Source: Microgenomates group bacterium Gr01-1014_7
Lineage (GTDB): Bacteria > Patescibacteriota > Microgenomatia > Daviesbacterales > UBA10151
NCBI GenBank assembly: GCA_007376405.1
Contig: VMGD01000007.1
Span: forward strand, 1-53,156
Length of the DNA: 53,156 nt
Direction: 5' to 3'
The notes beneath the pieces were generated by a model, which had not been told where the DNA came from, did no database searches, and saw only the letters and a list, made by a program, of their open reading frames with translations. The position numbers were made by a program, and so were the translations under genes. This document shows, one piece after another, positions 10,528 to 44,089 of the stretch (position 1 is its first letter; every line of letters starts with the position of its first letter).

Positions 10528-12486
<1,959 letters not shown>

Positions 12487-12489
12487 CTA

Positions 12490-13119
12490 TCAAATTTGGC
12501 CGGGCATCACAAGCATTAAGTATTCCAAAATGGCCCGGATGTTGACATTTTGCGCTGCCCATTCCTCTGCTTGCAAAAGTTCTTTGACAAAATCTTTATT
12601 AGCCGGGAGATGCTTTCTAAAAAAGATAACTAAAGCATATAAAAATTCTTTTCTATCTTTTAGTTTTTCAATATATTCAAACCGCTCCCCGGTTTCCGAA
12701 TTAATTAATTTTTCTATATCTTTTATATAATCTGACGACTGATGACTAACGACTGATGACTGAATTCTGATTATTTGGCATCTGGAAAGTACAGTTGGCA
12801 AAAATATGGCATCAGAAGGAGCTGCCAAAATTAAAATGGCATCAGGTGGAGGCTCTTCCAGAGTTTTTAAAAGTGCGTTCTGGGCTTCTAAAGTTAGCGC
12901 GGATGCGTCTTCCAAGACTATAACTCTCCCCTTAGCAGAATATGGCTTTAAAGAAAAATGCTCCTTAATTTTTCTGGCCTGTTCAATGCCAAGTTTAGAG
13001 TCGTGAGTGAAATAAAGGAGGTCAGGATGAGGGGTTGGTAGATTATGGCTCGCTAAAATTTTTCTTATCTCCTTCAGTCTTACTTCAAGATCAGGTGAAA
13101 TTAACAGTCTTGCAATCAT
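12490..13119 (-). CDS. holB: Truncated DNA polymerase III delta-prime-like protein
   Basis: HPDL, EAQNALLKTLEEPP and LPTVLSRC clamp-loader motifs; only 209 aa. Confidence 0.75.
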   Translation of the reverse strand: MIARLLISPDLEVRLKEIRKILASHNLPTPHPDLLYFTHDSKLGIEQARKIKEHFSLKPYSAKGRVIVLEDASALTLEAQNALLKTLEEPPPDAILILAAPSDAIFLPTVLSRCQIIRIQSSVVSHQSSDYIKDIEKLINSETGERFEYIEKLKDRKEFLYALVIFFRKHLPANKDFVKELLQAEEWAAQNVNIRAILEYLMLVMPGQI

Positions 13120-13144: not shown

Positions 13145-14851
13145 ATGGCTGCCCAGACTACTCAAGGTAATGCAATTGAGGATATTTTACTAGAACAAGG
13201 TTTGCTTACTCCTGATCAGGTATCTGCAATAAAGCTGGAAAGCATTAATTCCGGTCAGGCAGTTGACAGAATTCTTTTGCATCACAACATTGTGCCGATG
13301 GAAAAAATTGCCCAGGCCAAAGCCCGGATTTTAAATGTCCCATTTGTTAAACTTGAGGGGAAAGCTATCTCTACTGATGTCTTAAACCTTATTCCCGAGC
13401 CGGCTGCCCGCCGCTACCGTATTATTCCCTTTGAAAAATCCGGTGATGAACTTTGGGTGGCCATGGAAGACCCTTTGGATATCCAGATTATCCAGTTTGT
13501 GGAAAAAAGAAGCGGGATGAGGACCAAGCCCTTTTTAGCTTTAACCGATGATATTTTAAAAGCAATTGGTGATCAATATGCTCAAAACTTAACCACAGAT
13601 GTTACTTCGGCACTACGAGAAGTAGAGTCGGTACAACCCGAGCAAGTATTGGGAGTGGGTCCTGAAATTATCAGAGAAGCTCCGGTTTCCAATATAATCA
13701 ACCAGCTTTTGGAATACGCCATAAAATCCCGGGCCTCCGATATCCATATTGAACCCCAGGAGGATAGGACCAGAGTCAGATACAGAATTGACGGGATTCT
13801 GCAGGAAAAAATACTGCTGCCAAAAGGGGTGCATGAGGCTTTGGTTTCCAGAATTAAAATTTTATCTGTTTTAAAAATAGATGAAAAACGTTTACCTCAG
13901 GATGGTCGTTTTACCTTTACCTATGGACAGGCCGAGGTTGATTTGCGTGTTTCCATTATTCCGACCGTTTTTGGAGAAAAAGTGGTCTTGAGGCTTTTGC
14001 CAAAATCCAGCGCCGCCCCGACGCTTTTAGAGTTGGGTCTTAGAGGTGCATCGCTAAAGGCTTTGGAAGCACAGCTTCTTAGAACTCACGGAATTATTTT
14101 AATCTGCGGTCCTACCGGTTCCGGAAAAACCACTACTCTTTACTCTATTCTTGCCAAAATCTCAACCAGCAAAGTAAATGTAGTGACTATTGAGGATCCG
14201 GTTGAGTATCAAATACCCGGTGTTAATCAGGCACAAGTTAATCCGGGAGTGGGATTGACCTTTGCTTCAGCTTTAAGGAGCTTCCTGCGACAGGACCCTA
14301 ATATAATAATGGTAGGTGAGGTTCGTGATACCGAGACTGCCGAGCTGGCAATACAGGCAGCATTAACCGGCCACCAGGTTTTTTCAACAGTTCATACCAA
14401 CTCCGCTTCCGGCGCTCCTCCCAGGCTTTTGGACATGGGAGTTGAGCCCTTTTTACTGACTTCCGCGCTAAATTGCGCTGTGGGACAGCGGGTCGTCAGA
14501 AAAATCTGCACTTATTGCAAGGTAGAATTTAGCGCGCTGCCTGAGGTTATGGAAAACTTTAAACAGGTTTTGGGAAAATTCATGCCTCCGGCATCAGCTT
14601 CGACAAACCTCTCTAAAGGAAAGGGATGTAAGTATTGTGGTAATACAGGATACTTGGGGAGGATTGGGATATTTGAAGTTTTGGTGATAACAGATCAAAT
14701 TGCAAAGCTGGTTTTGGAACATGCCGCTTCTAATTCTATAGAGGAAGCCGCGGTCGGCGTAGGGATGATTACGATGAAGCAGGATGGATATTTGAAAGCG
14801 TTGGAAGGAGTAACAACTTTGGAGGAGGTGCTCCGGGTAGCACAGGACTAA
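13145..14851 (+). CDS. pilB: Type IV pilus assembly ATPase (PilB/GspE family)
   Basis: ASDIHIEP, RLPQDGR, GPTGSGKTTT, LRQDPNIIMVGEVRD, CxxC...CxxC. Confidence 0.93.
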   Translation: MAAQTTQGNAIEDILLEQGLLTPDQVSAIKLESINSGQAVDRILLHHNIVPMEKIAQAKARILNVPFVKLEGKAISTDVLNLIPEPAARRYRIIPFEKSGDELWVAMEDPLDIQIIQFVEKRSGMRTKPFLALTDDILKAIGDQYAQNLTTDVTSALREVESVQPEQVLGVGPEIIREAPVSNIINQLLEYAIKSRASDIHIEPQEDRTRVRYRIDGILQEKILLPKGVHEALVSRIKILSVLKIDEKRLPQDGRFTFTYGQAEVDLRVSIIPTVFGEKVVLRLLPKSSAAPTLLELGLRGASLKALEAQLLRTHGIILICGPTGSGKTTTLYSILAKISTSKVNVVTIEDPVEYQIPGVNQAQVNPGVGLTFASALRSFLRQDPNIIMVGEVRDTETAELAIQAALTGHQVFSTVHTNSASGAPPRLLDMGVEPFLLTSALNCAVGQRVVRKICTYCKVEFSALPEVMENFKQVLGKFMPPASASTNLSKGKGCKYCGNTGYLGRIGIFEVLVITDQIAKLVLEHAASNSIEEAAVGVGMITMKQDGYLKALEGVTTLEEVLRVAQD

Positions 14852-27689: not shown

Positions 27690-28388
27690 TTAAGTTGCCA
27701 GATCAGGTCTAACTTTTTTAGTTTTTTGTAAAGCTTTTTCTTTTCTCCATTTTTCTATTTCTGCATGGTTTCCGGATAAAAGTATTTTTGGGACCTTTTT
27801 GCCTTCGAAGTCCTCAGGTCTGGTATATTGCGGACCTTCTAATAGGGTATAGGGTTTAGCGTTTAGGGTATAGTTAGAAAAAGATTCAATTTCAGTGGCC
27901 TCGGGTTTTTCCAGAACTCCGGGAAGTAGACGCACTATAGAATCAACAATTACCATGGCTGGAATCTCTCCGCCGGTTAACACATAATCTCCAATGGAGA
28001 TTTCCTCATCTACATACCTATCAATAAACCTCTGATCAACACCCTCGTAATGACCGCATATTATAATAATGTAGGAATGTTTGGATAAGCTTCGTGCTTT
28101 TGCTTGAGTATATTTTTTGCCTGAAGCCGAAGTAAGAATAACTTTTGACTTTTGATTTTTGACTTTTAACTTTTTTATAGCTTTGGCTAAAATATCTGCT
28201 TTGAGGATCATTCCGGCTCCTCCGCCGTATGGACGATCATCAACTACTTTGTGTTTGCCTTCTCCAAAAGCCCTTAAATTGACAAGTTCAAAAATTATTT
28301 TCCCCTTTTGCTGAGCTCGTTTTAGAATGGAAGTGTTTAATATGGGATCAAAAACTTCCGGAAAAAGGGTAATGATACTGATTTTCAT
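27690..28388 (-). CDS. trmD: tRNA (guanine37-N1)-methyltransferase
   Basis: ITLFPE, VDDRPYGGGAGM, CGHYEGVDQR, SIGDYVLTGGE, LLSGNH. Start moved to ATG 28388. Confidence 0.96.
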   Translation of the reverse strand: MKISIITLFPEVFDPILNTSILKRAQQKGKIIFELVNLRAFGEGKHKVVDDRPYGGGAGMILKADILAKAIKKLKVKNQKSKVILTSASGKKYTQAKARSLSKHSYIIIICGHYEGVDQRFIDRYVDEEISIGDYVLTGGEIPAMVIVDSIVRLLPGVLEKPEATEIESFSNYTLNAKPYTLLEGPQYTRPEDFEGKKVPKILLSGNHAEIEKWRKEKALQKTKKVRPDLAT

Positions 28389-28412
28389 AAATTTTCCTAC
28401 GGTGTGTGGGTA

Positions 28413-28430
28413 CCCCACCCCTGGGGTGGG
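28413..28430. repeat. GC-rich palindrome CCCCACCCCTGGGGTGGG, copy 2
   Basis: Identical 18-mer abutting the khpA stop codon. Confidence 0.8.
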
Positions 28431-29160: not shown

Positions 29161-29847
29161 TCAGCTTAACTTTTCAAGGGCAAGGGATGCGGCTTGCTCT
29201 TCGGCTACCTGTTTGCTCCCTCCTTCTCCCCTGCCATATTCTTTCCCTTTTAAATATACTGCTACTGTGAATTTTTTAGCGTGATCCGGCCCCCGGGTTG
29301 CCAGAATTTTGTAATGAGGAGACTGTTTTAATTTTTCCTGGACAATTTCCTGCAAGTTTGATTTGGCATCTTTGGGAGGACCTGATTTTAACTCCGCGCT
29401 AAAAAGAGAAAGCAGATTTTTCTCTATTACTTTTTGGACTGTTTCCAAGCCCTGGTCAAGATAAATTGCTCCGAGCAAGGCCTCAAAAGTATTGGCCAGC
29501 AGTTGAGTATTTTCCCTGCCACCTCCTAACTCCTCGCCTTTTGACAAACATAAGTAACTTCCCAGTTTAAGTTTTTTGGCTGCCTCTGCCAGGGAATTGG
29601 TTTTGACAATGTAGGCCCGTAGATTAGTTAGATCACCCTCTGCATCTTTAGGTTTCTCTTGAAAGAGGTGGGATGAAATAACAAAAGAAAGAATAGAATC
29701 TCCTAAAAATTCCAGCCGTTCATTGGACGCAATATTTAGATTGACCTCATTTAAGTAAGACCGGTGATAAAAAGCCTGCTGAAGAAGCTTGATATTTTTA
29801 AAACTTATATTTAGATTTTTTAGAAGGTTTGAAAATTCATTTGACAT
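29161..29847 (-). CDS. rnc: Ribonuclease III
   Basis: NERLEFLGDS signature, FEALLGAIYLD, dsRBD KSNLQE...GPDH...AEEQAA. Confidence 0.96.
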   Translation of the reverse strand: MSNEFSNLLKNLNISFKNIKLLQQAFYHRSYLNEVNLNIASNERLEFLGDSILSFVISSHLFQEKPKDAEGDLTNLRAYIVKTNSLAEAAKKLKLGSYLCLSKGEELGGGRENTQLLANTFEALLGAIYLDQGLETVQKVIEKNLLSLFSAELKSGPPKDAKSNLQEIVQEKLKQSPHYKILATRGPDHAKKFTVAVYLKGKEYGRGEGGSKQVAEEQAASLALEKLS

Positions 29848-35306: not shown

Positions 35307-38300
35307 ATGGGCGTTGAAAGTAGCAGTTCAGGTGAGCTAAATGTGCCTCCAACACATGAGGAGGCCCTTAATGCTGCGCTGGATTTGGTAAGAAAACCTG
35401 CAGGCGCTGCTGGGCCGGTTCACCAACCCGGAATTACTACTGCAAGTGTTGCACCGGAAATAAGAGGAGAAACTGTAGGCGGGTCCTCGGAGCCTCAATC
35501 GTTCAATGATGACTGGCCGTCACCTGATGAGGATGGGCCTCCAACGCCGGCATCACCTGCCGGAGCTGATGTAACATCGGAACCTGCAGTAGCTAACAGG
35601 CCGGTAAACATTTTATCCGGAGAAGAAGAAAGGAGAGTTAGACAAGAGAACATTGATTTTTATAGAAATGAAGTAGACAAACGTATTAGCGCTTTTCAGC
35701 AGGGTAATCTTCATATGGAAAGCCTGACTAGTTTTCTTCCCTGGGATTTAGTTCTTTCCAGATATGAGGCAGGAAGCCAGGAATTGGAGGATGCCTTTGC
35801 CAGAGTAAGAAATGTGCTTACACCTGAAGAATTTGAAAGAATTCAGGGACTGTTTTATGAAAATATTGCTTCTTTGATAAACGTGATAGAGTTTACGTCT
35901 TCTGGTCTCCCAGGGGGATGGGGGCTTTTGCCGGGTGATGCCGGATGGCTGGACCAGTACAGAAGGGATATTATTGCGCATCCTGAACGGGGAATTAAAA
36001 TCACCAATGATGATGAAGAGTGGAATAAATGGGTAGCAAATCCTGTCCAGACCCTGGCTACTGCTCCAAGATCCGGAATTACTACTGCTAGCGTTCCACC
36101 TGCACGAGAATTACCAGTCTTACCAACGGAGTTGGCTGATTTTGAAGCCTTAAGGGCCTCGGGTGATTTAATTCCATTAGACCCTCGAGCAGACCCGGTA
36201 AACTTTGGACCAGAATCAGCTGAACCTGCAGGTTCTGGATTGCCCGGAGATGAAGCAGGAACAGCAGATACTGCTGCAGCCAGTACCCCGGCCCGGCCTT
36301 TAACAGATGAAAATGAACAGCGAAATACTGAAATAACACAAGGAAGAGAATTGGTGCAGGAATGGATAGATGTATTTAAAAAACCGAGTAATGGGGCAGG
36401 GGGAAAGTTTTCAATTTTCCATCTCGAACATAATCAACTGGAAAGATTCCAGAGATTATTAGTATCAGCAAGATTTTCACCTGCTGAAGCTGTTGAAATT
36501 AGCAACCAAACCCAAGCCATTCTCATTCCTATAGAGTCTAGATATGTACAAGCGTCGTACAGATCTGATCTGGCATCTCTTATTAACGCTATAGAGCTAC
36601 CAGAAATTTATGGCAGGACATATAGAGCTGATGGTGGATGGTTGAATGAATGGAGGCAATACTTTATTGATAACCCGCAATTAGGGGTAGAAATTACTGT
36701 TAATGATGAGGATTGGAATAACTGGTTGGCAGATTTGGAAAAATCAGAAGTTATACCTGAAGGATATACAGGGCCAAGGACTCCGTGGAATACTCCGGTT
36801 GCGGAAAGAAGAATCAGTACGTCGGAGCTGGCAGAAATGTCAGGAAGCAGTGGAATGACAATAGAAGACAGGTCGGGAGAACTTGCCAGATCACTGCTTG
36901 AGCAAATAGATTTATACAGAGTTTTTGTACTGCAGGATCCAAAATTGCATGATGAATTCTACAGAATCCTTAATAACGGAACTCATCCGCAAAATTCTCA
37001 CCTTTTGGGATGGATGGAAGAAAGATACAGGAATTATTTAGATGATGGTCAATTTACCGGTGACAGAAGGGAATTTTTAGAAAATCAGGCTGAGTGGTGG
37101 TTATATGAAGAAATGCCTAATCTTATTTATAGATCAGGTGTTGGGCTTAATACTATCCTGATAAAAGGTAATTTAAGAGGTCTGCTTACACATGAGGAAT
37201 TCGTAAGAGTAGTAGTCCGGGTAAGGGATTTATATGAAATAAATTCTCCGGGCCAGGGTGCAGAGTGGTCTGAATTTTTCCGTGAAGTTCAGGGAAATCC
37301 TAACTGGATGCAGGCTGACCGAGAGGGAGACAGTGGCGTGGAACTAAGGGATACAATTCAAAAACTTTTGGATTTTGCTCATGAAGAGAGAATTGAAGGA
37401 AGATTGGAGATTAATGATTTATTAAACTTTGCAGAGTATGAACGTGGAATTTCCCCGGGGTTCAGGGACAGAAATGTAAAGGCTTTCGTAAATGAGTTGT
37501 TAGAAGAAAGAATTCCTGGAATAATTGTAGATCTGCAGCTGGGACCGGGTAATGATTTAATAGCTTCGCTACAAGAGATCCTGGAAGATAAGTTATATGC
37601 AAAAGTTGTTCACGGAGTCGCCCAAAGGCACCACAACTATATAAAGCAGCAAACAGTAGCAGGGCAAATACTAGCAGATGAAGACACACAAAAATTAGCT
37701 GAAATCTGGTCTAAGCTGGATCAGGAACTTCAAGAGAAACAATCTCAGAGAGGGTTTAGAGGTAAGGCTGGAAGAGCTTTTGCCGGGTTAAGAAGAGGTC
37801 AAAGGCCAGTTGCCCCGGAGCCGGCTGCAGTCGTAGCAGTTGAGCCTGTATCCCCTCAAGTCCAGGAACAAAGGCAAAGATTAAATACAATTTTATCACG
37901 AATGGAAGAAGCTAGAAGAAGTGGATGGGATGTGTGGACTTTAGAAGATATTGCACAAGTTCTAAGCAGAGAAGCTCAGGAGGTACGTGGGCGTCCCACT
38001 GATAGGTTTCAATTTTCCGGAAATGCAGAGGCCCTTGAGCAAGAAATAGTAGATACTTTTGTTGGTTCAGGATTTGGGTCGCAAGATAGAGGTTTAGAGA
38101 GTGTGGTTAGACGGCTGGAAGGTATTTTAGGTAGTGAAGCGAGTAAAACTATTATTGATCATTATAGAGCCAACCTGGATGCCGTTCAGAGTTATGCGGA
38201 TCTTCGGTCAGCTAGGGAAATAGAGCAAAGGTATAAACAACTTGAAGAGGATCTAAGATACAGATCAATTGATGAAACACAGCTACCACAAAGATTAGTG

Positions 38301-38423
38301 GCATTTGAAATGGTACCTAATGATAGAGTTCATGAGTTATTAAAAGAGTACTTGTCACTCAACCAATATCAAAGAGTTATGGAGCAGTTTTACCAATTGA
38401 TGGATGAAGAAGGAGGAAAGTAA
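35307..38423 (+). CDS. Hypothetical 1038-aa acidic protein with an internal domain duplication
   Basis: Long ORF with a repeated GITTASV motif and a repeated Trp-rich module. Confidence 0.8.
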   Translation: MGVESSSSGELNVPPTHEEALNAALDLVRKPAGAAGPVHQPGITTASVAPEIRGETVGGSSEPQSFNDDWPSPDEDGPPTPASPAGADVTSEPAVANRPVNILSGEEERRVRQENIDFYRNEVDKRISAFQQGNLHMESLTSFLPWDLVLSRYEAGSQELEDAFARVRNVLTPEEFERIQGLFYENIASLINVIEFTSSGLPGGWGLLPGDAGWLDQYRRDIIAHPERGIKITNDDEEWNKWVANPVQTLATAPRSGITTASVPPARELPVLPTELADFEALRASGDLIPLDPRADPVNFGPESAEPAGSGLPGDEAGTADTAAASTPARPLTDENEQRNTEITQGRELVQEWIDVFKKPSNGAGGKFSIFHLEHNQLERFQRLLVSARFSPAEAVEISNQTQAILIPIESRYVQASYRSDLASLINAIELPEIYGRTYRADGGWLNEWRQYFIDNPQLGVEITVNDEDWNNWLADLEKSEVIPEGYTGPRTPWNTPVAERRISTSELAEMSGSSGMTIEDRSGELARSLLEQIDLYRVFVLQDPKLHDEFYRILNNGTHPQNSHLLGWMEERYRNYLDDGQFTGDRREFLENQAEWWLYEEMPNLIYRSGVGLNTILIKGNLRGLLTHEEFVRVVVRVRDLYEINSPGQGAEWSEFFREVQGNPNWMQADREGDSGVELRDTIQKLLDFAHEERIEGRLEINDLLNFAEYERGISPGFRDRNVKAFVNELLEERIPGIIVDLQLGPGNDLIASLQEILEDKLYAKVVHGVAQRHHNYIKQQTVAGQILADEDTQKLAEIWSKLDQELQEKQSQRGFRGKAGRAFAGLRRGQRPVAPEPAAVVAVEPVSPQVQEQRQRLNTILSRMEEARRSGWDVWTLEDIAQVLSREAQEVRGRPTDRFQFSGNAEALEQEIVDTFVGSGFGSQDRGLESVVRRLEGILGSEASKTIIDHYRANLDAVQSYADLRSAREIEQRYKQLEEDLRYRSIDETQLPQRLVAFEMVPNDRVHELLKEYLSLNQYQRVMEQFYQLMDEEGGK

Positions 38424-38427
38424 AACT

Positions 38428-40245
38428 ATGGCTGAGAATATTGGAGGTGTTGATTTTAGAGCAAGATGGACTCAGGATGCAAGAGCAGCAGCTATAGCTG
38501 ATCCAGCCCGCAGGGTTGCCATTTCTCTTCCCTCCCCTGCTTCGGCAGGTTCTGAAAGGTCAATGCGGGAGACGTTGTCTAGGCTGCCGGGGGAAGTTAC
38601 AAGCTTTAAAATTTTAGGTAAATCTGTTGGAGATTTGGGGAAAGAAGCTGCAATTTCCGGCACTGCAGGAGCATTACTGCGGATGGGCTTGGGTGCAACA
38701 GCAGGGGTTGCGGGGTTTACTGCCGTACCCGTTTGGGGAATAGCGGCTGCAGGAGGAGGTATTATGGGAGGGGTAAGAGAGCATTTCAAACGGACTAATG
38801 AAACCTGGGCCAGAATGAGGCAGGAACAAGGCAGAGAAGTACTAGGAGTAGTGAATAAAAAGCTGGGGAAAGGAGATACCCTAAAAGGCTTTTTTAATCC
38901 TGATCAGAAAAGAAGTATTACATTTGCAATAATGAGAGGGTCGGCTTTTGGAGGAGCCGGTAATGTAGCTGGTGGATGGGTTGCAGAAACAGCAGTGGGA
39001 CAAGCTGTTAAAGGAGTTTTTTCAGGAGTAGGAGAAGCTAAAGATGAATTTTTAGGAGGGGTAGGAGGGCTAAAGGATGCAATAGGCGCAGCGCGCAGTG
39101 CGGATACATCTGGTGGTGCAGCTGCAGCTACGCCAACTGAAACTCCAACTCCTACTGCGACATCGACTGCTACCCCAACCCCCACTGCTACTGAGGTTCC
39201 CAAAACTGCAACTGCACTACCTCCTTCCCCTACCGTTCAACCTACTCCAGCAGAAACTCAAACTTCTGTTCCTCATTCAATTCCTGAAGCACTCGGAAGA
39301 GGAATACCGTTTATAGGTAAGCCGTTAGATGCGGTAGCGGGAGGTTTTCATAATGTTGGTTTGAAAGCGCATGAAATAACAGGCTGGGGTTTAGATGCGG
39401 GAAAAACTTTTGTTGATCATAGTCAATACTTTAAAGGAAGAATGGAAATTACAGATAGTTCTCCTGACTGGGTTAAAAATATAAATAGTTTAGACGGAGA
39501 ATATGGGAGGGCTATCCAAGGAACTGTTGTTGAGAATCTACCGGAGCAGCGGGTGAAAGCACAAGAGATTGCTCACATAATTATGGATGAACGAGGTCAG
39601 CCATATTATACCTACCAGACAAACGCTATATCTAACCATATTCAACATATAATGGAGGATCAAGCCAATAAAGCCTTTGATTCTAACTTGCAAAGTTTGG
39701 TTGATCGTGGCGTGAACCTTAATGAGTTAACCCAGAAACAATTTGAGGAAATGATTAAAGAAGAAGGAAGAAAAAAGTTTGAGGAGTGGTTGAGAGATAA
39801 AGCTACAGATGATATTACTGAAGGTGTAAAAGCTATCCTTAATACGGAAGACCAAATTAAGCAGGTTTTAAGTCAGGGTCAGGGTTTGGTAGCTGAAGTT
39901 AGACCTGTTCCCGCTGGCACCAACGTTTTTGATGTAGTTGCCCCCCCTAATGCAGATACGGATATTGAATTTTTGAAAAAGATCATCCCTAATATGACAG
40001 CTAATATTGCTGCCAATGAGGGAGTACTTACGGGATGGTATTGGGAAGGTAATCCAGAGAGAGTTTACCCCGCATATTTGGGTGAACTTAACTATCTGAT
40101 GAAAAAAGCCGAAGAAGGAAATCTCGAAGCGTTATTAAGGTTAAAAGATGCTTTCAAGAGCGTACGCCCGAGTGATTCACAATTTAAAATGTTAACTCCT
40201 GAAGGAATAAAAAGGGTCTTAGAGATATTAAGGCAGTTAGGATAA
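38428..40245 (+). CDS. Hypothetical protein with Gly-zipper-like hydrophobic segments and a Pro/Thr linker
   Basis: Gly/Ala-rich helices and ATPTETPTPTAT linker. AGGAGG upstream of ATG 38428 (track start 38404). Confidence 0.75.
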   Translation: MAENIGGVDFRARWTQDARAAAIADPARRVAISLPSPASAGSERSMRETLSRLPGEVTSFKILGKSVGDLGKEAAISGTAGALLRMGLGATAGVAGFTAVPVWGIAAAGGGIMGGVREHFKRTNETWARMRQEQGREVLGVVNKKLGKGDTLKGFFNPDQKRSITFAIMRGSAFGGAGNVAGGWVAETAVGQAVKGVFSGVGEAKDEFLGGVGGLKDAIGAARSADTSGGAAAATPTETPTPTATSTATPTPTATEVPKTATALPPSPTVQPTPAETQTSVPHSIPEALGRGIPFIGKPLDAVAGGFHNVGLKAHEITGWGLDAGKTFVDHSQYFKGRMEITDSSPDWVKNINSLDGEYGRAIQGTVVENLPEQRVKAQEIAHIIMDERGQPYYTYQTNAISNHIQHIMEDQANKAFDSNLQSLVDRGVNLNELTQKQFEEMIKEEGRKKFEEWLRDKATDDITEGVKAILNTEDQIKQVLSQGQGLVAEVRPVPAGTNVFDVVAPPNADTDIEFLKKIIPNMTANIAANEGVLTGWYWEGNPERVYPAYLGELNYLMKKAEEGNLEALLRLKDAFKSVRPSDSQFKMLTPEGIKRVLEILRQLG

Positions 40246-40250
40246 ATAAT

Positions 40251-40574
40251 ATGGATAATGTATTTAATGATTTTTTAGAAAATTTGGTTAATGAATGTTT
40301 GCAGGGGGCAAAGTTTGCTTATCTTTCGGAAAAGGATAAAAAGGAAATTGCACGCAAGCTGCGGGACCATTTTTATTCGGTAACTATTGATACTTTAGTT
40401 GATCAGTTATCAGATGAACAGATAAACCAAATAAAAGGCTTGGATCCAAAAGCTCCGGAAATGGAACAAAAAATGGCTGAATTTGCTGCCTCTATCCCCG
40501 GTTTTGCTTTTGTTTTGGAAGATAAATTAAAAATTGAAATGGACAAAATTCTCCAAACCGGACAAATTTCTTAA
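40251..40574 (+). CDS. Small acidic helical protein, DUF5663-like
   Basis: 107-aa ORF 5 nt after the previous stop; family resemblance from memory only. Confidence 0.6.
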   Translation: MDNVFNDFLENLVNECLQGAKFAYLSEKDKKEIARKLRDHFYSVTIDTLVDQLSDEQINQIKGLDPKAPEMEQKMAEFAASIPGFAFVLEDKLKIEMDKILQTGQIS

Positions 40575-40675
40575 AAAGCGGACAGTAAGGGCAAAAGAGA
40601 AAAAAGAATAATTGCCAGCCCGGCAATCAGAGATAAAATTATCCAGAAAATTCTATATTTTTTTGAATACATCAT
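40571..40675 (-). CDS. 34-aa single-TM microprotein (MMYSKKYRIFWIILSLIAGLAIILFSLLPLLSAF)
   Basis: Hand translation; GGAGG upstream; basic N-terminus plus hydrophobic helix; stop shares TTAA with the convergent gene. Confidence 0.6.
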   Translation of the reverse strand: MMYSKKYRIFWIILSLIAGLAIILFSLLPLLSAF

Positions 40676-40691
40676 GGTCGGCTTCGCCTCC

Positions 40692-40728
40692 AATTTCTAA
40701 TTACTAATTTCTAATTGACCTAACTAAA
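40692..40728 (+). repeat. Tandem 7/9-mer array (TTTCTAA TTACTAA TTTCTAA TTGACCTAA) downstream of the four-helix-bundle gene
   Basis: Read directly; inverted counterpart at 41104-41137. Confidence 0.75.
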
Positions 40729-40737
40729 AAATACTTT

Positions 40738-41100
40738 CTATTTTACTTTCCTATAAATGGAATTAAAAATCAAGTTTAATTCTTTAGCTTCTGTCCATAA
40801 AGTTCTAGCTTCTTCGGTCATGCTGGGAACAGCAATTGCCATCATTCTTAGAAAATGTTTTGCTTCACGGGCTTCTTTCTTACAGATACCAATTTTGTGT
40901 TTAAAGTCGAGTTTACTCTCAGCGTCATCGGCCTCAGAGTAGTTTGCTCCCACACTAGTACCACACTTGACTAGTTGATTAATCAGAGGATGTGTTAGTG
41001 GACCTATGGGAATTTTCTGACAAAACTTGATAATTGCTTCCCCAAATTTTGCAGTCCTTTCTTCAAGATCAAATTTTTTGGTACTTGTATCATTAGACAT
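40738..41100 (-). CDS. Four helix bundle protein (TIGR02436 / 23S-IVS-protein family)
   Basis: DLEERT..F, QLVKCGTSVGANYSEA..AESKLDFKHKIGICKKEARE, EAKELNLIF. Confidence 0.9.
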   Translation of the reverse strand: MSNDTSTKKFDLEERTAKFGEAIIKFCQKIPIGPLTHPLINQLVKCGTSVGANYSEADDAESKLDFKHKIGICKKEAREAKHFLRMMAIAVPSMTEEARTLWTEAKELNLIFNSIYRKVK

Positions 41101-41103
41101 TAT

Positions 41104-41137
41104 TTAGAAATTAGGTTAATTAGGTTAATTAGGTTAA
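41104..41137 (-). repeat. Tandem array (TTAACCTAA)x3 plus TTTCTAA upstream of the four-helix-bundle gene, containing the tyrS stop
   Basis: The + strand reads ttagaaa ttaggttaa ttaggttaa ttaggttaa. Confidence 0.8.
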
Positions 41138-42232
41138 TTTTGTTAACTTCTCTATTTCCTCCAAAGCCTTCCTTCTTTTTGGATCTTCAAAATAACGGCG
41201 TGCTGGTTCTAGTTTTTTAATTAACCATTCTGCCACAGCAGTTTTTAAATCCATGGGGTGCAATTTTTTGCTGGCATAATCTTTTTGCAATTCATTGAAT
41301 GAATTGTAAGTTACATTTCCCCCATGTTCCGGTTTTCTGGAAACTTGTAAAGTTCCGTTCTCTTCATAAAATACTAGATTTTTTGTCCAATCCAAAATTG
41401 GATTAAATGCTATTTCTCCTTCCGGGCAAAAAGCATTATTAACTTTTCTTTTGATTTCATCAGGATAATCATGAATAAAAACAGCAGAATCCGGTTTGGA
41501 TTTGCTCATTTTGGCTGCCTCAATATCTAAAACTTTTTTACCACTCTCATCTGTTGTGAAAACCGGTTGAAGTAATCCCAGGAGTAGATGATGATGAATA
41601 GCCACCGGTTTTCGCTCACCCAAATCCTGCGCAGATTCTCTTGCAACAACATGGACATTTCTCTGGTCAGTTCCGGCGTGGGCTATATTTGCCCCCAATG
41701 CAAAAATGTCGGCAGACTGCATAGCCGGATAAATAAGCATGGCAGTATCGGAGATTTCCGACTCTTTCCGCCCCATTATCGTTGTGGATCTGATCATCCT
41801 TGCTAAAGTTGTTGCTTTGGCAACTCTAACAACGTTAGCCCAATAGTCATTGCCCAGTTTTTCATAAAGGTCGCTGCCCAATACGAAATTAATCTTGTCC
41901 GGGTTCGCACCGGCACATAATGCTGCCGCTTTAAGAGCTTTTTCAAAGTATTCTCTTGCCAGCCTTTTTGCTGTTTCCAGCGTCCCATCGAGTTTTTTAT
42001 TAAGCCAGGTATGCCAGTCAGCAAGGAGAATTTGGATTTCAACTCCTGCGTCTTGTAGATCCTTAATTTTCTGCATGGTATAAACCCAGCCCATGTGACC
42101 TTTTCCTGAAATTTCAAAGCCAATGTAGTGGCGGAGTGGAATTCCTGAGTTGATCAAACTCTTTAACTCTTCCTCCGTTAAAACCTCTTCCAGATTTCTG
42201 GTAATTAAATTAAACTTTTCCTCATTTGTCAT
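41129..42232 (-). CDS. tyrS: Tyrosine--tRNA ligase, archaeal/eukaryotic type
   Basis: YIGFEISGKGHMG, LADWH, IYPAMQSADIF, GTDQR, KMSKS, AFCPEG, LHPMDLK; no bacterial S4-like tail. Confidence 0.92.
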   Translation of the reverse strand: MTNEEKFNLITRNLEEVLTEEELKSLINSGIPLRHYIGFEISGKGHMGWVYTMQKIKDLQDAGVEIQILLADWHTWLNKKLDGTLETAKRLAREYFEKALKAAALCAGANPDKINFVLGSDLYEKLGNDYWANVVRVAKATTLARMIRSTTIMGRKESEISDTAMLIYPAMQSADIFALGANIAHAGTDQRNVHVVARESAQDLGERKPVAIHHHLLLGLLQPVFTTDESGKKVLDIEAAKMSKSKPDSAVFIHDYPDEIKRKVNNAFCPEGEIAFNPILDWTKNLVFYEENGTLQVSRKPEHGGNVTYNSFNELQKDYASKKLHPMDLKTAVAEWLIKKLEPARRYFEDPKRRKALEEIEKLTKLT

Positions 42233-42268
42233 AGTTCGATTATATATTATCGTGCTAAAATAACCAAT

Positions 42269-44089
42269 ATGTTTAAGTTTTTAAATGAGAAAAAAATGGA
42301 GAGGGTTAAGACTACCATTGTGACTTCATGGAGGTTGCTGGGTCTGCTTTGGAGTATTGATAAGTGGTTGCTTTTGGGGAATATGGCGGCGGTTTCCGTG
42401 CCGGCGGTTGTTCCTCTTTTGATTGGTTATATTTTTAAACTACTTATTGATCAGGTGGTATTAATTACTTCTGGAAAGCCCGCGGATAATCATTTGATAA
42501 TTCTGATAGTGGTTGCAGGATTTAGTACTTATGTTTTGCAAAGTTTGGCATTCTCCGCCCAGGACTACCTTGTCAGGTTAATCTATACAAAAGTTCCTGT
42601 TTCCTTATATAACATGATTTTACTGAAGGTTTCCAGTCTGGATATGGCTTATTTTGAAGATAGTGAATTTAAATCCACTCTGGAAAAGGCCAGGGATTCA
42701 TATACCTTCAGACCTTTAAATATGATGGATAATTTGCTTTTTACTTTTCAGGGGTTAATACAAATGATTGCGTCTTTGGCAGTTTTGGCATCCCTTAATT
42801 TGTTTTTAATTTTGCTGGTGATTTTGGTGGCTGTGCCGGAATTTCTAAACCGGGCCAGGCAATCCCAGCTTGCCTGGGGTATTTGGGATGCTAATTCCCC
42901 TTTCAGGAAAAAATTCTGGTATGTATCTTGGCTACTTCAAGAAAGAGATGCCATTAAAGAAATGAAGCTTTTTGCTCTTCCGCACCATTTTTTAGCAGAG
43001 CTTAAAGGTTTGCATGAGAAGTTTTATCAGGATAATAAAAAACTGGCTACCAAATATTTCGGCATTAATACTTTGTTTAATTTACTTGAAGGCTTTGCTT
43101 TTATTGGCATCCTTATATACATAATTTTTGAAACTATTGCCAAAAGATTAACTATTGGAGATATTAGCTACTATACTTCAGCAGCCACTAATTTCCAGAA
43201 TGCCATTGGTGGACTCTTTAGAAATGTGGTTAAACTTTTTGAGGGAAGCCTTTATATTGGTTCTATTTTTGAGGTTTTGGATGCCCAGCCTAAAATCAAG
43301 CAGATTGCAAATCCGGTCCGGTTAAATCTTAAGGGTCCACCGTTTATTGGATTTAAAAATGTTACCTTTTCATATCCGGGTACAAAGATTAAAGTACTGA
43401 AAAATTTTGATCTGACAATCAAACCGGGAGAAAAGATAGCGCTGGTTGGAGAAAACGGGTCAGGTAAAACTACCATCATTAAGCTTTTATGCAGGTTTTA
43501 TGATGTTTTGGAGGGAGAGATTTTAATTAACGGAAAAAATATTAAGGATTTAGATTTGAATGAGTGGTACAAAGCAGTCGGAGTTTTATTTCAGGATTTT
43601 GTTAAGTATGAATATAGCGCCAAGCAGAATATATTTTTCGGAAAGGTTTATGAAAAGATGAGCTTAGGAAAGATTATTGAGGCGGCAATATCTTCTGGTG
43701 CAGACCCAATGATTAGAAAATTGGAAAAAGGGTATGAACAAATGCTGGGCAGGACTTTTGAGGGTGGAGTGGAGCTTTCGGTCGGTCAGTGGCAGAAACT
43801 GGCCTTAGCCAGAGGGTTTTTTAGAAATGCCCCTATCTTGATTTTAGATGAGCCAACCGCCGCAATTGATGCTAAAGCCGAGGCGGAAATTTTTAATCGG
43901 GTTGAAAGGTTATCTAAGGATAAAACCGTAATTATTATTTCTCATCGATTTTCCACAGTCAGGAATGCGGACAAAATTTACGTGATTGAAAAGGGAAAAA
44001 TTATAGAATCGGGTTCTCATGAGCAGTTGATAGATTTAAACGGCCAATATGCCACACTTTTTAAACTTCAAGCCAAAGGCTACCGGTAA
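42269..44089 (+). CDS. ABC exporter, fused permease and ATP-binding domains
   Basis: N-terminal TM domain, GENGSGKTT, LSVGQWQK, ILDEPT, ISHRFST. Confidence 0.93.
   Translation: MFKFLNEKKMERVKTTIVTSWRLLGLLWSIDKWLLLGNMAAVSVPAVVPLLIGYIFKLLIDQVVLITSGKPADNHLIILIVVAGFSTYVLQSLAFSAQDYLVRLIYTKVPVSLYNMILLKVSSLDMAYFEDSEFKSTLEKARDSYTFRPLNMMDNLLFTFQGLIQMIASLAVLASLNLFLILLVILVAVPEFLNRARQSQLAWGIWDANSPFRKKFWYVSWLLQERDAIKEMKLFALPHHFLAELKGLHEKFYQDNKKLATKYFGINTLFNLLEGFAFIGILIYIIFETIAKRLTIGDISYYTSAATNFQNAIGGLFRNVVKLFEGSLYIGSIFEVLDAQPKIKQIANPVRLNLKGPPFIGFKNVTFSYPGTKIKVLKNFDLTIKPGEKIALVGENGSGKTTIIKLLCRFYDVLEGEILINGKNIKDLDLNEWYKAVGVLFQDFVKYEYSAKQNIFFGKVYEKMSLGKIIEAAISSGADPMIRKLEKGYEQMLGRTFEGGVELSVGQWQKLALARGFFRNAPILILDEPTAAIDAKAEAEIFNRVERLSKDKTVIIISHRFSTVRNADKIYVIEKGKIIESGSHEQLIDLNGQYATLFKLQAKGYR

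Follow-up and report, generated by a model that had tools for sequence, protein, structure and literature searches.

The 53,156-nt stretch of DNA analysed here (the window), from Microgenomates group bacterium Gr01-1014_7, raises the question of why a small gene for a predicted four-helix-bundle protein stands directly behind tyrS with an array of 7- and 9-nt repeats at either end, the two arrays facing one another in inverted orientation. A preliminary description of the locus had suggested that gene and arrays may together be a mobile unit, or that the protein may bind, or help to spread, the similar arrays scattered through the window. To our knowledge the family to which the protein belongs, PF05635/TIGR02436, is large and without a known function, and is mainly known as the open reading frame (ORF) of rRNA intervening sequences (IVSs). 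We therefore consider whether gene and arrays form one unit, how that unit came to lie behind tyrS and what the arrays may do there.

Layout of the tyrS cassette and its predicted protein

The observation that the four-helix-bundle gene is bracketed by 7/9-mer arrays matches the sequence base for base, and Tandem Repeats Finder (TRF) reports both arrays. Read on the plus strand, the left array consists of TTTCTAA (40694-40700), TTACTAA (40701-40707), TTTCTAA (40708-40714) and TTGACCTAA (40715-40723), and is returned by the program as 40692-40716 with a period of 7 and 3.6 copies. Read on the minus strand, the right array consists of three copies of TTAACCTAA (41137-41111) followed by TTTCTAA (41110-41104), and is returned as 41109-41139 with a period of 9, 3.4 copies and 100% matches. 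The right array was also said to contain the tyrS stop codon; this is so, as positions 41131-41129 are the TAA of the tyrS-proximal 9-mer, and the last three TyrS residues (KLT) are thus encoded by array sequence. The similar arrays that had been noted elsewhere in the window lie at 12732, 18003, 27842, 28141, 31622 and 51404.

The features of the locus, and two genes elsewhere in the window that bear on its interpretation, are collected in Table 1. Three nucleotides separate the 5' arm from the four-helix-bundle ATG, and a GGAGG motif is present between the 3' arm and the ATG of the small-peptide gene. The cassette is embedded in an operon that runs from tyrS to this peptide gene and has no room for a promoter of its own. 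Apart from tyrS and the peptide gene, the neighbouring ORFs comprise an ABC-transporter-like gene and unknowns, and an Rfam search of 38000-44000 at E ≤ 1 gave no match. In the minimum-free-energy fold of the 476-nt sense RNA (40675-41150, minus strand), positions 41104-41132 form a stem with 40689-40720, leaving the ORF in the loop; the stability of this fold corresponds to z = -2.29, with 1 of 100 shuffles equally stable.

Table 1. Features of the tyrS cassette and related genes in the window.
Feature	Positions	Strand	Evidence or content
tyrS (tyrosine--tRNA ligase), host gene upstream of the cassette	41129-42232	minus	NF006330, 425 bits
5' arm (minus-strand reading)	41104-41137	minus	TTAACCTAA x3, then TTTCTAA
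Four-helix-bundle gene (TIGR02436/PF05635), 120 aa, hairpin loop	40738-41100	minus	ORF and HMM matches
3' arm (minus-strand reading)	40694-40723	minus	TTAGGTCAA TTAGAAA TTAGTAA TTAGAAA; reverse complement of the 5' arm units
Gene for a conserved hydrophobic peptide of ~34 aa, downstream of the cassette	40571-40675	minus	ORF and comparison with relatives
RNase III gene, candidate stem-cutting enzyme (putative role)	29167-29823	minus	TIGR02191, 253.7 bits, above cut-off
trmD	27690-28418		two in-frame heptamer arrays

The 120-aa protein scores above the cut-offs of both PF05635 (41.7 bits, cut-off 33.8) and TIGR02436 (65.4 bits, cut-off 24), and its sequence matches 2RLD in the PDB (E 4.7e-10). 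An AlphaFold2 model built from an alignment of 12 subfamily members (pLDDT 92.4) has four helices, at residues 5-28, 36-58, 63-90 and 92-118, which is the up-down four-helix bundle of about 110-125 residues that characterises the family. Foldseek places the model closest to two solved family members, 2RLD (BT_0352; TMq/TMt 0.73-0.84) and 2GSC (Xcc0516; 0.75-0.84), each of which has five chains (A-E). Within the family motif GxxRxxxSxxxNxxE (quoted in PMC3936711), S49, N53 and E56 are present and do not vary across the subfamily alignment, and K45 and Q42 stand in place of the arginine and the glycine. The protein thus resembles the TIGR02436/PF05635 family in sequence, in fold and in the retained S...N..E part of the motif, and differs in these two replacements and in belonging to a divergent subfamily, as its Pfam score indicates.

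The preliminary description had further pointed to a fold shared with Avd, the accessory protein of diversity-generating retroelements (DGRs), and the model bears this out at a greater distance, with TM values of 0.60-0.67 to Avd (4DWL, 8UB7). Sequence similarity between the two proteins is below detection, the PDB sequence search having returned 2RLD alone, and the tyrS cassette differs from the Avd systems in having no reverse transcriptase, template repeat or variable repeat. With nothing DGR-like among the ORFs around the locus, we rejected an assignment of the cassette as part of a DGR.

Gene and arms across the genome and the family

The genome of which the window forms contig C6 measures 1.09 Mb in 26 contigs; PF05635 has 13 matches in it, 8 of them above the cut-off. 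Short tandem arrays flank all 8 of these copies on both sides, with a unit that changes between copies; 6 copies have inverted arrays and 2 have wholly or partly direct ones. For comparison we used a set of 1241 ORFs called mechanically by a greedy procedure, together with the TRF arrays of period 7 or 9, which number 197 after merging. Such an array stands at either end of seven of the 1241 ORFs. Five of the seven belong to PF05635, so that both-end arrays occur in 5/8 PF05635 copies versus 2/1233 other ORFs (Fisher's exact p = 4.8e-11). When flanks were scored by local alignment of one with the reverse complement of the other and ranked over 1217 ORFs (the arm score), the eight copies took ranks 2, 4, 7, 11, 11, 29, 66 and 963, with the tyrS cassette at 11. 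The copy at rank 963 is a direct-repeat case, and its direct score ranks 3rd; C5:26006-26374 is among the copies whose arrays are direct, not inverted. The other top-ranked ORFs are unrelated genes that do not encode four-helix bundles. One ORF with high flank complementarity, C22:7566-8222, resembles by eye an IS200/RAYT-type transposase with REP-like hairpins.

The family is widespread among relatives, with a PF05635 match at E ≤ 1e-5 in 27 of the 30 other genera of the same bacterial family. We took 80 of the 81 above-cut-off matches (G018:C10 was left out), which with the eight copies above gives 88 loci; the profile match was present in 87, and 71 had the full length together with flanks of 90 nt or more at either end. 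An inverted arm score of at least 22, which is the 95th percentile of control ORFs, was reached in 42/71, and 41/71 had p ≤ 0.01 in a test against 200 shuffles; the direct-array score was at least 22 in 11/71. As a second, independent sample, 80 loci were drawn by scanning a single genome for each species; they belong almost wholly to CPR lineages and, the search having been built from an alignment of three copies, cover the C5a/C1/C25a-like subfamily and not that of the tyrS-cassette gene. Here the corresponding figures were 45/76, 48/76 and, for direct arrays, 5/76. Significantly complementary arms are thus found in about 59% of cassettes, and about 40% fall under the arm threshold. Over 149 family genes, the 48-nt flanks have an identity to themselves of 0.45-0.53 at lag 7 and 0.39-0.49 at lag 14, versus 0.27-0.30 at every lag from 2 to 15 (0.28-0.29 at lag 7) for 976 control genes. 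The preliminary description had named flanks no richer in arrays than those of random genes as the outcome that would speak against it; by both-end arrays, arm scores and lag-7 periodicity the family flanks are clearly richer, and gene and arms form one unit across the family.

These observations also dispose of coincidence. A genome with 197 lenient and 92 strict arrays is rich in 7/9-mer microsatellites, two of which might flank a gene by chance, but this is hardly credible in view of the both-end arrays with their Fisher test, the arm ranks and the family-wide lag-7 periodicity, on which we rule it out; the same units are, moreover, retained in the orthologues of genomes G011 and G002 (see below).

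The upstream neighbour of the cassettes lies on the same strand in 52 of the 57 decidable cases (14 were unclear; background 0.71, p 2e-4), and its stop codon precedes the four-helix-bundle ATG by a median gap of 34.5 nt. This gap is taken up by the arm only, and so leaves no room for a separate promoter. In 25 of the 149 cassettes the arms abut both codons exactly, the A of the start codon facing the T of the stop codon. The purine-rich arm is usually the upstream one (G:C versus C:G pairs 157:75 and 180:18 in the two samples); the tyrS cassette, in which it lies downstream, is an exception. Arm mismatches read in the sense orientation give no wobble signal (G:U versus A:C 39:34 in the first sample and 18:30 in the second), and where the stop is TGA (9 cassettes) the base opposite is T seven times, A twice and never C.

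Family copies also lie inside rRNA genes of relatives, within 23S at loci L081, L092, L093, L096 and L098 and within 16S at L080 and L083. Five of these seven, all but L092 and L096, were of full length with flanks long enough for scoring, and their arm scores are 23-33. The gene-plus-arms design is therefore common to operon sites and to 16S and 23S rRNA genes of relatives. The genome studied here has its own rRNA-operon copy in the 23S-5S spacer; this copy is antisense to the rRNA, and its message cannot, for that reason, derive from the rRNA precursor.

History and mobility of the tyrS site

TyrS and its surroundings were compared in the present genus and 24 others, 23 of them from the same family and one from another family of the class. 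In 4 of the 25, a four-helix-bundle gene separates tyrS from the small-peptide gene: the present genome, G011 (locus L018), G002 (L021, where the contig ends within the locus) and G024 (L032). In L026, L029, L035 and L023 the peptide gene starts 12-58 nt after tyrS at a cassette-free site; by eye, tyrS is followed by the peptide gene also in L019, L028 and L034, and in L039 behind another short insert. Six of seven other relatives examined have an unrelated antisense ORF of ~95-145 codons at this position. The empty sites that the preliminary description had proposed to look for after tyrS thus exist, with the cassette present in 4/25 and the site in other genera either empty or occupied by a different gene, and the cassette is an insertion relative to the empty sites. 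This presence/absence variation, the lack of which would also have spoken against the preliminary description, shows the history of the site and not current movement.

The orthologues indicate how old that history is. Those of G011 and G002 have the array units of the present cassette (TTACTAA, TTAACCTAA, TTTCTAA and TTGACCTAA), and that of G024 has quite different units on both sides which are still mutually complementary and inverted. For the three orthologues, four-helix-bundle identity to the present protein is 77, 71 and 57%, versus 70.6, 69.6 and 54.9% for TyrS. As far as these identities can tell, the protein is conserved as strongly as TyrS, and divergence in step with TyrS implies that the insertion is old and inherited. 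On the TyrS tree the cassette state requires four changes, no fewer than with shuffled labels. These comparisons are most simply read as one or two ancient insertions that were passed on vertically under purifying selection and were repeatedly lost or replaced.

There are no near-identical copies in any of the 13 genomes with more than one usable copy (0/112 within-genome pairs above 70% amino-acid identity), which implies that the tyrS cassette is not an active transposon. Within genomes, arm similarity and protein similarity are uncorrelated (rho 0.03). Between genomes, arm similarity tracks protein similarity (rho 0.27, a value reached by 0/300 permutations); this correlation may come from diverged orthologous sites that the 11-mer flank filter missed. 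Comparison by eye of filled sites (the present one, L018 and L032) with empty ones (L026 and L029) revealed no target-site duplication outside the arms. In the probable source metagenome the contig covering the cassette interior has a depth like that of the flanks (40.6 versus 34 and 32.7). Arm-like arrays joined across 3-49 nt in groundwater contigs were considered as excision joints and rejected, their matching sides being shorter than 36 nt at 85% similarity; these arm-to-arm joints most likely come from other loci or organisms.

The proposal that gene and arrays make up a mobile unit accordingly holds in its first part and lacks support in its second: arms throughout the family and variable occupancy of the site speak for one unit, and orthologues that track TyrS, the missing near-identical pairs and the missing target-site duplication speak against current mobility. 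Like MITEs and other non-autonomous elements bounded by terminal inverted repeats (TIRs), the cassette is a short unit with inverted ends and is present or absent site by site. Unlike them, it has neither near-identical copies nor a visible target-site duplication, on which grounds we rejected a MITE or TIR transposon, and its array unit differs from copy to copy.

Heptamer arrays, alternative explanations and a possible processing stem

Heptamer arrays are not confined to cassettes. The genome studied here has 8.4 arrays of period 7 per 100 kb; for period 9 the density is 2.0, and for periods 6, 8, 10 and 12 it is 0.1-0.3. Period 7 is the commonest array class in 10 of 13 sampled genomes, and no period-7 arrays were found in G009, G023 and G005. 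Of the 92 strict period-7 arrays in the present genome, 8 are cassette arms and 84 are far from four-helix-bundle genes; 51/92 lie well inside stop-free frames of at least 200 codons. Such abundance far from cassettes implies that the arrays have a life of their own, outside the reach of a model based on IVSs. In trmD, for example, the first of two array sites holds a 24-nt array in 7 of 16 family orthologues, 3 nt in one and nothing in 8, and the arrays are of three or four different unit types; at the second site unit and length vary, and two orthologues have by eye an inverted pair inside the gene. Scattered tandem heptanucleotide repeats of several sequence families (STRR) occur in the genomes of heterocystous cyanobacteria. 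The arrays described here resemble STRR in being scattered 7-nt units of several families, and differ in phylum, in their units and in being found also in frame within genes and paired as hairpin arms.

The preliminary description had proposed to correlate gene copy number with array counts. Among 13 genomes, which are related to one another and have small counts, array density off the cassettes does rise with the number of PF05635 copies (Spearman 0.66, p 0.015), but 3.0-3.6 arrays per 100 kb are found even in three of the four sampled genomes in which PF05635 has no match. This leaves the idea that the four-helix-bundle protein, with a polymerase or reverse transcriptase, creates or propagates heptamer arrays, the solo arrays being its products, as one that we consider very unlikely. 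The predominance of period 7, the correlation with copy number, the in-frame insertions in trmD with their presence/absence and unit turnover and the resemblance of the protein model to Avd all agree with it. The arrays of genomes without the family argue against it, as do the relatedness and small counts of the 13 genomes, the density of just 3.4 arrays per 100 kb in G002 with its 8 copies, the failure to find a polymerase gene linked to cassettes and the lack of arms at the weak Avd-like match at C25:11306-11668 (inverted score 20, rank 165/1217). It is quite unlikely, in our estimation, that the cassettes are the autonomous protein-coding form of a genome-wide heptamer-array system, in which ORF-less hairpins and in-frame arrays such as those of trmD would be non-autonomous products and a putatively pentameric protein would recognise, maintain or propagate the arrays.

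The five chains in the crystals of 2RLD and 2GSC also fit an operator or translational control, in which a pentameric protein would bind its own heptamers, as DNA or RNA, and autoregulate, the inverted symmetry providing two binding platforms; the exact abutment of the arms on start and stop codons in 25/149 cassettes and the purine-rich upstream arm spanning the ribosome-binding region are what one would expect. We find this very doubtful indeed, since cassettes encoding proteins of 50-70% identity have different units, a situation that would demand fast co-evolution of specificity although the conserved face of the protein is invariant, and since the G024 orthologue keeps complementarity and not sequence. 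A DNA-level element, with the inverted arrays acting as terminal repeats or DNA hairpins for a recombinase supplied in trans and the RNA stem being incidental, has more to recommend it: the tyrS site is variably occupied, cassettes lie at many unrelated sites including rRNA genes, arms and proteins correlate between genomes (rho 0.27, 0/300 permutations) and the wobble statistics carry no RNA-specific signal. The groundwater joints (3-49 nt), which resemble ORF-less hairpins with the same units, point weakly the same way, with sides below 36 nt. We nevertheless regard it as unlikely given the 0/112 pairs above 70% identity, the within-genome rho of 0.03, the lack of a target-site duplication at the junctions, the lack of a gene for a catalytic protein in the cassette and the apparent vertical inheritance of the tyrS-linked copies; the between-genome correlation, for its part, is possibly due to undetected orthology.

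The explanation that we favour, and to which we give about an even chance, is that the tyrS cassette is of the IVS type, an operon-embedded four-helix-bundle gene in the loop of a hairpin made of inverted 7/9-nt arrays that would serve as an RNase III-type processing stem. We infer this role by analogy, from the operon embedding, the fold, the rRNA copies, the published S23p case and the presence of an RNase III gene. Several observations count against it: the flat wobble and TGA statistics, the roughly 40% of cassettes under the arm threshold, the cassettes with direct arrays, the antisense copy in the 23S-5S spacer, the downstream position of the purine-rich arm in the tyrS cassette and the 84 arrays far from four-helix-bundle genes. 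ORF-bearing 23S rRNA intervening sequences encoding S23p/PF05635 were reportedly described by Ralph and McClelland in 1993. In the available part of the report on an S23p-bearing 23S intervening sequence (PMC4990558), the element has a 28-bp terminal stem that is cut by RNase III in vitro; two to three heptamers stand in tandem before the ORF, in numbers that differ from strain to strain, and cleavage falls at the first of these repeats.

The tyrS cassette has in common with the ORF-bearing 23S IVSs of Leptospira, Coxiella and others the protein family, an ORF within terminal inverted repeats that form a stem and tandem heptamers of variable number beside the ORF. It differs in lying between two protein-coding genes of one operon, outside rRNA, and in having arms made almost entirely of 7- and 9-mer units, one of which supplies the stop codon of an essential gene; RNase III, the processing enzyme of the published case, would have this part here by inference. 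Terminal inverted repeats closing a stem and an S23p/PF05635 ORF are thus present, but the location that defines a 23S rRNA intervening sequence, a 23S helix, is not, and the cassette is therefore not one.

We propose that the cassette would be cotranscribed with tyrS and that the arms would pair in the transcript as a stem of ~24 bp with the ORF looped out. RNase III, whose gene is in the window, would then cut this stem as in the ORF-bearing 23S intervening sequences. The cut would free the message of the four-helix-bundle gene and part the host messages, rendering the insertion harmless and insulating the host operon. Arms built of repeats would offer a choice of pairing registers and could be renewed by slippage, which would explain the complete change of units with preserved complementarity in the G024 orthologue.

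A full-text literature search found heptamer repeats tied to the PF05635 family only for the Coxiella intervening sequence (PMC4990558). A survey of CPR rRNA insertions (PMC11270868), in those parts available, notes the family in 16S and 23S inserts and does not mention repeats. The tyrS cassette belongs to a class of IVS-type cassettes on which little has been written; it is old, lies within an operon and has a mechanism that we would understand by analogy. The same package of a gene in a repeat hairpin is found in the rRNA genes and in ordinary operons of one bacterial family, by which the rRNA intervening sequence becomes a special case of a general cassette, and the operon form has persisted as long as the neighbouring housekeeping genes. 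The finding also links the PF05635 family to 7-nt tandem arrays, an otherwise unexplained class of bacterial repeats that here invades essential genes in frame. Were the cassettes indeed the protein-coding form of a wider array system, this would give PF05635 a function and explain bacterial heptamer tandem repeats generally.

Occupants of the site downstream of tyrS

The natural downstream neighbour of tyrS at empty sites is a small hydrophobic-peptide gene, a longer 40-aa form of which returned no match in a Pfam search. In the window, the tyrS-linked cassette, consisting of a TIGR02436/PF05635 four-helix-bundle gene and its inverted array arms, lies between these two genes. In many relatives without the cassette (loci L015, L016, L017, L020, L022 and L031), the same position between tyrS and the peptide gene is taken by an unrelated ORF that runs antisense, varies between genomes and is about 95-145 codons long. 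This interval is a hot spot, open to alternative occupants. The array has also rewritten the C-terminus of TyrS: its final three residues and its stop codon derive from a 9-mer unit (window 41129-41140), and in relatives the protein ends two or three residues past a conserved LT, in codons that are unrelated.

The arms of these cassettes display a strong strand asymmetry, with G upstream and C downstream, in pairs of 157:75 for the 71 family cassettes and 180:18 for the 76 wider cassettes, which come almost entirely from CPR lineages. Perhaps this G-upstream bias arises from the upstream arm also serving as a ribosome-binding region. Compared with this bias, the arm polarity of the tyrS-linked cassette is reversed.

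Arrays and related genes elsewhere in the genome

Heptamer arrays are also found in frame within trmD. Among 16 family orthologues, one of the array sites holds a 24-nt array in seven, whose units vary from one orthologue to another, no array in eight and 3 nt in the remaining one; the second site is a hypervariable array region. By eye, an inverted array pair is apparent within the trmD coding sequence of two orthologues.

Coordinates of the features discussed. C-numbers are contigs of the genome to which the window belongs (G000).
Feature	Position	Strand	Remarks
Small hydrophobic-peptide gene, ~34 aa	window 40571-40675	-	conserved, 3' of tyrS across the family
trmD	window 27690-28418	-	essential tRNA methyltransferase gene
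In-frame heptamer arrays within trmD	window 27842-27873 and 28141-28174		two
Weak PF05635 paralogues	C26:52435-53037, C19:19894-20466, C8:5510-6034		three proteins, ~175-200 aa
Truncated copy, tyrS-linked gene's subfamily	C25:14328-14564		78 aa; inverted CAGTTAT-type arrays on both sides
Four-helix-bundle gene L005	C21:10462-10827		orthologue L087 in related genome G046
Cassette copy L121	C8:14059-14415		23S-5S spacer, antisense to rRNA

The three paralogues match PF05635 weakly, at positions 8-74, and the coding sequence of each contains two in-frame arrays of 9-nt units, one on either side of the conserved core; these arrays resemble a frame-neutral, nonamer version of the heptamer arms. The truncated copy is probably a decaying cassette. 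At L005 an opposite-strand tRNA gene separates the stop codon of the four-helix-bundle gene from the 3' arm, and is therefore inside the hairpin loop; in its orthologue L087 the tRNA is outside the arm.

A distinct second repeat system is present in the same genome, in which a 218-aa ORF (C22:7566-8222), a putative IS200/RAYT-type transposase by visual resemblance, has REP-like GC-rich hairpins on both flanks.

Hairpins without an ORF

Near the cassette copy L121 there are ORF-less heptamer hairpins at 13811-13887, just past the 5S gene, and at 11828-11949. In the groundwater metagenome runs X1-X4, contigs accumulate 10- to 100-fold, and do so only over the two arms of the tyrS-linked cassette (window 40692-40739 and 41092-41135), and many of the contigs join an arm-like array to its own complement, 3-49 nt apart. 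ORF-less hairpins built of the arm units of this cassette therefore seem to be common at other loci or in other organisms of the community.
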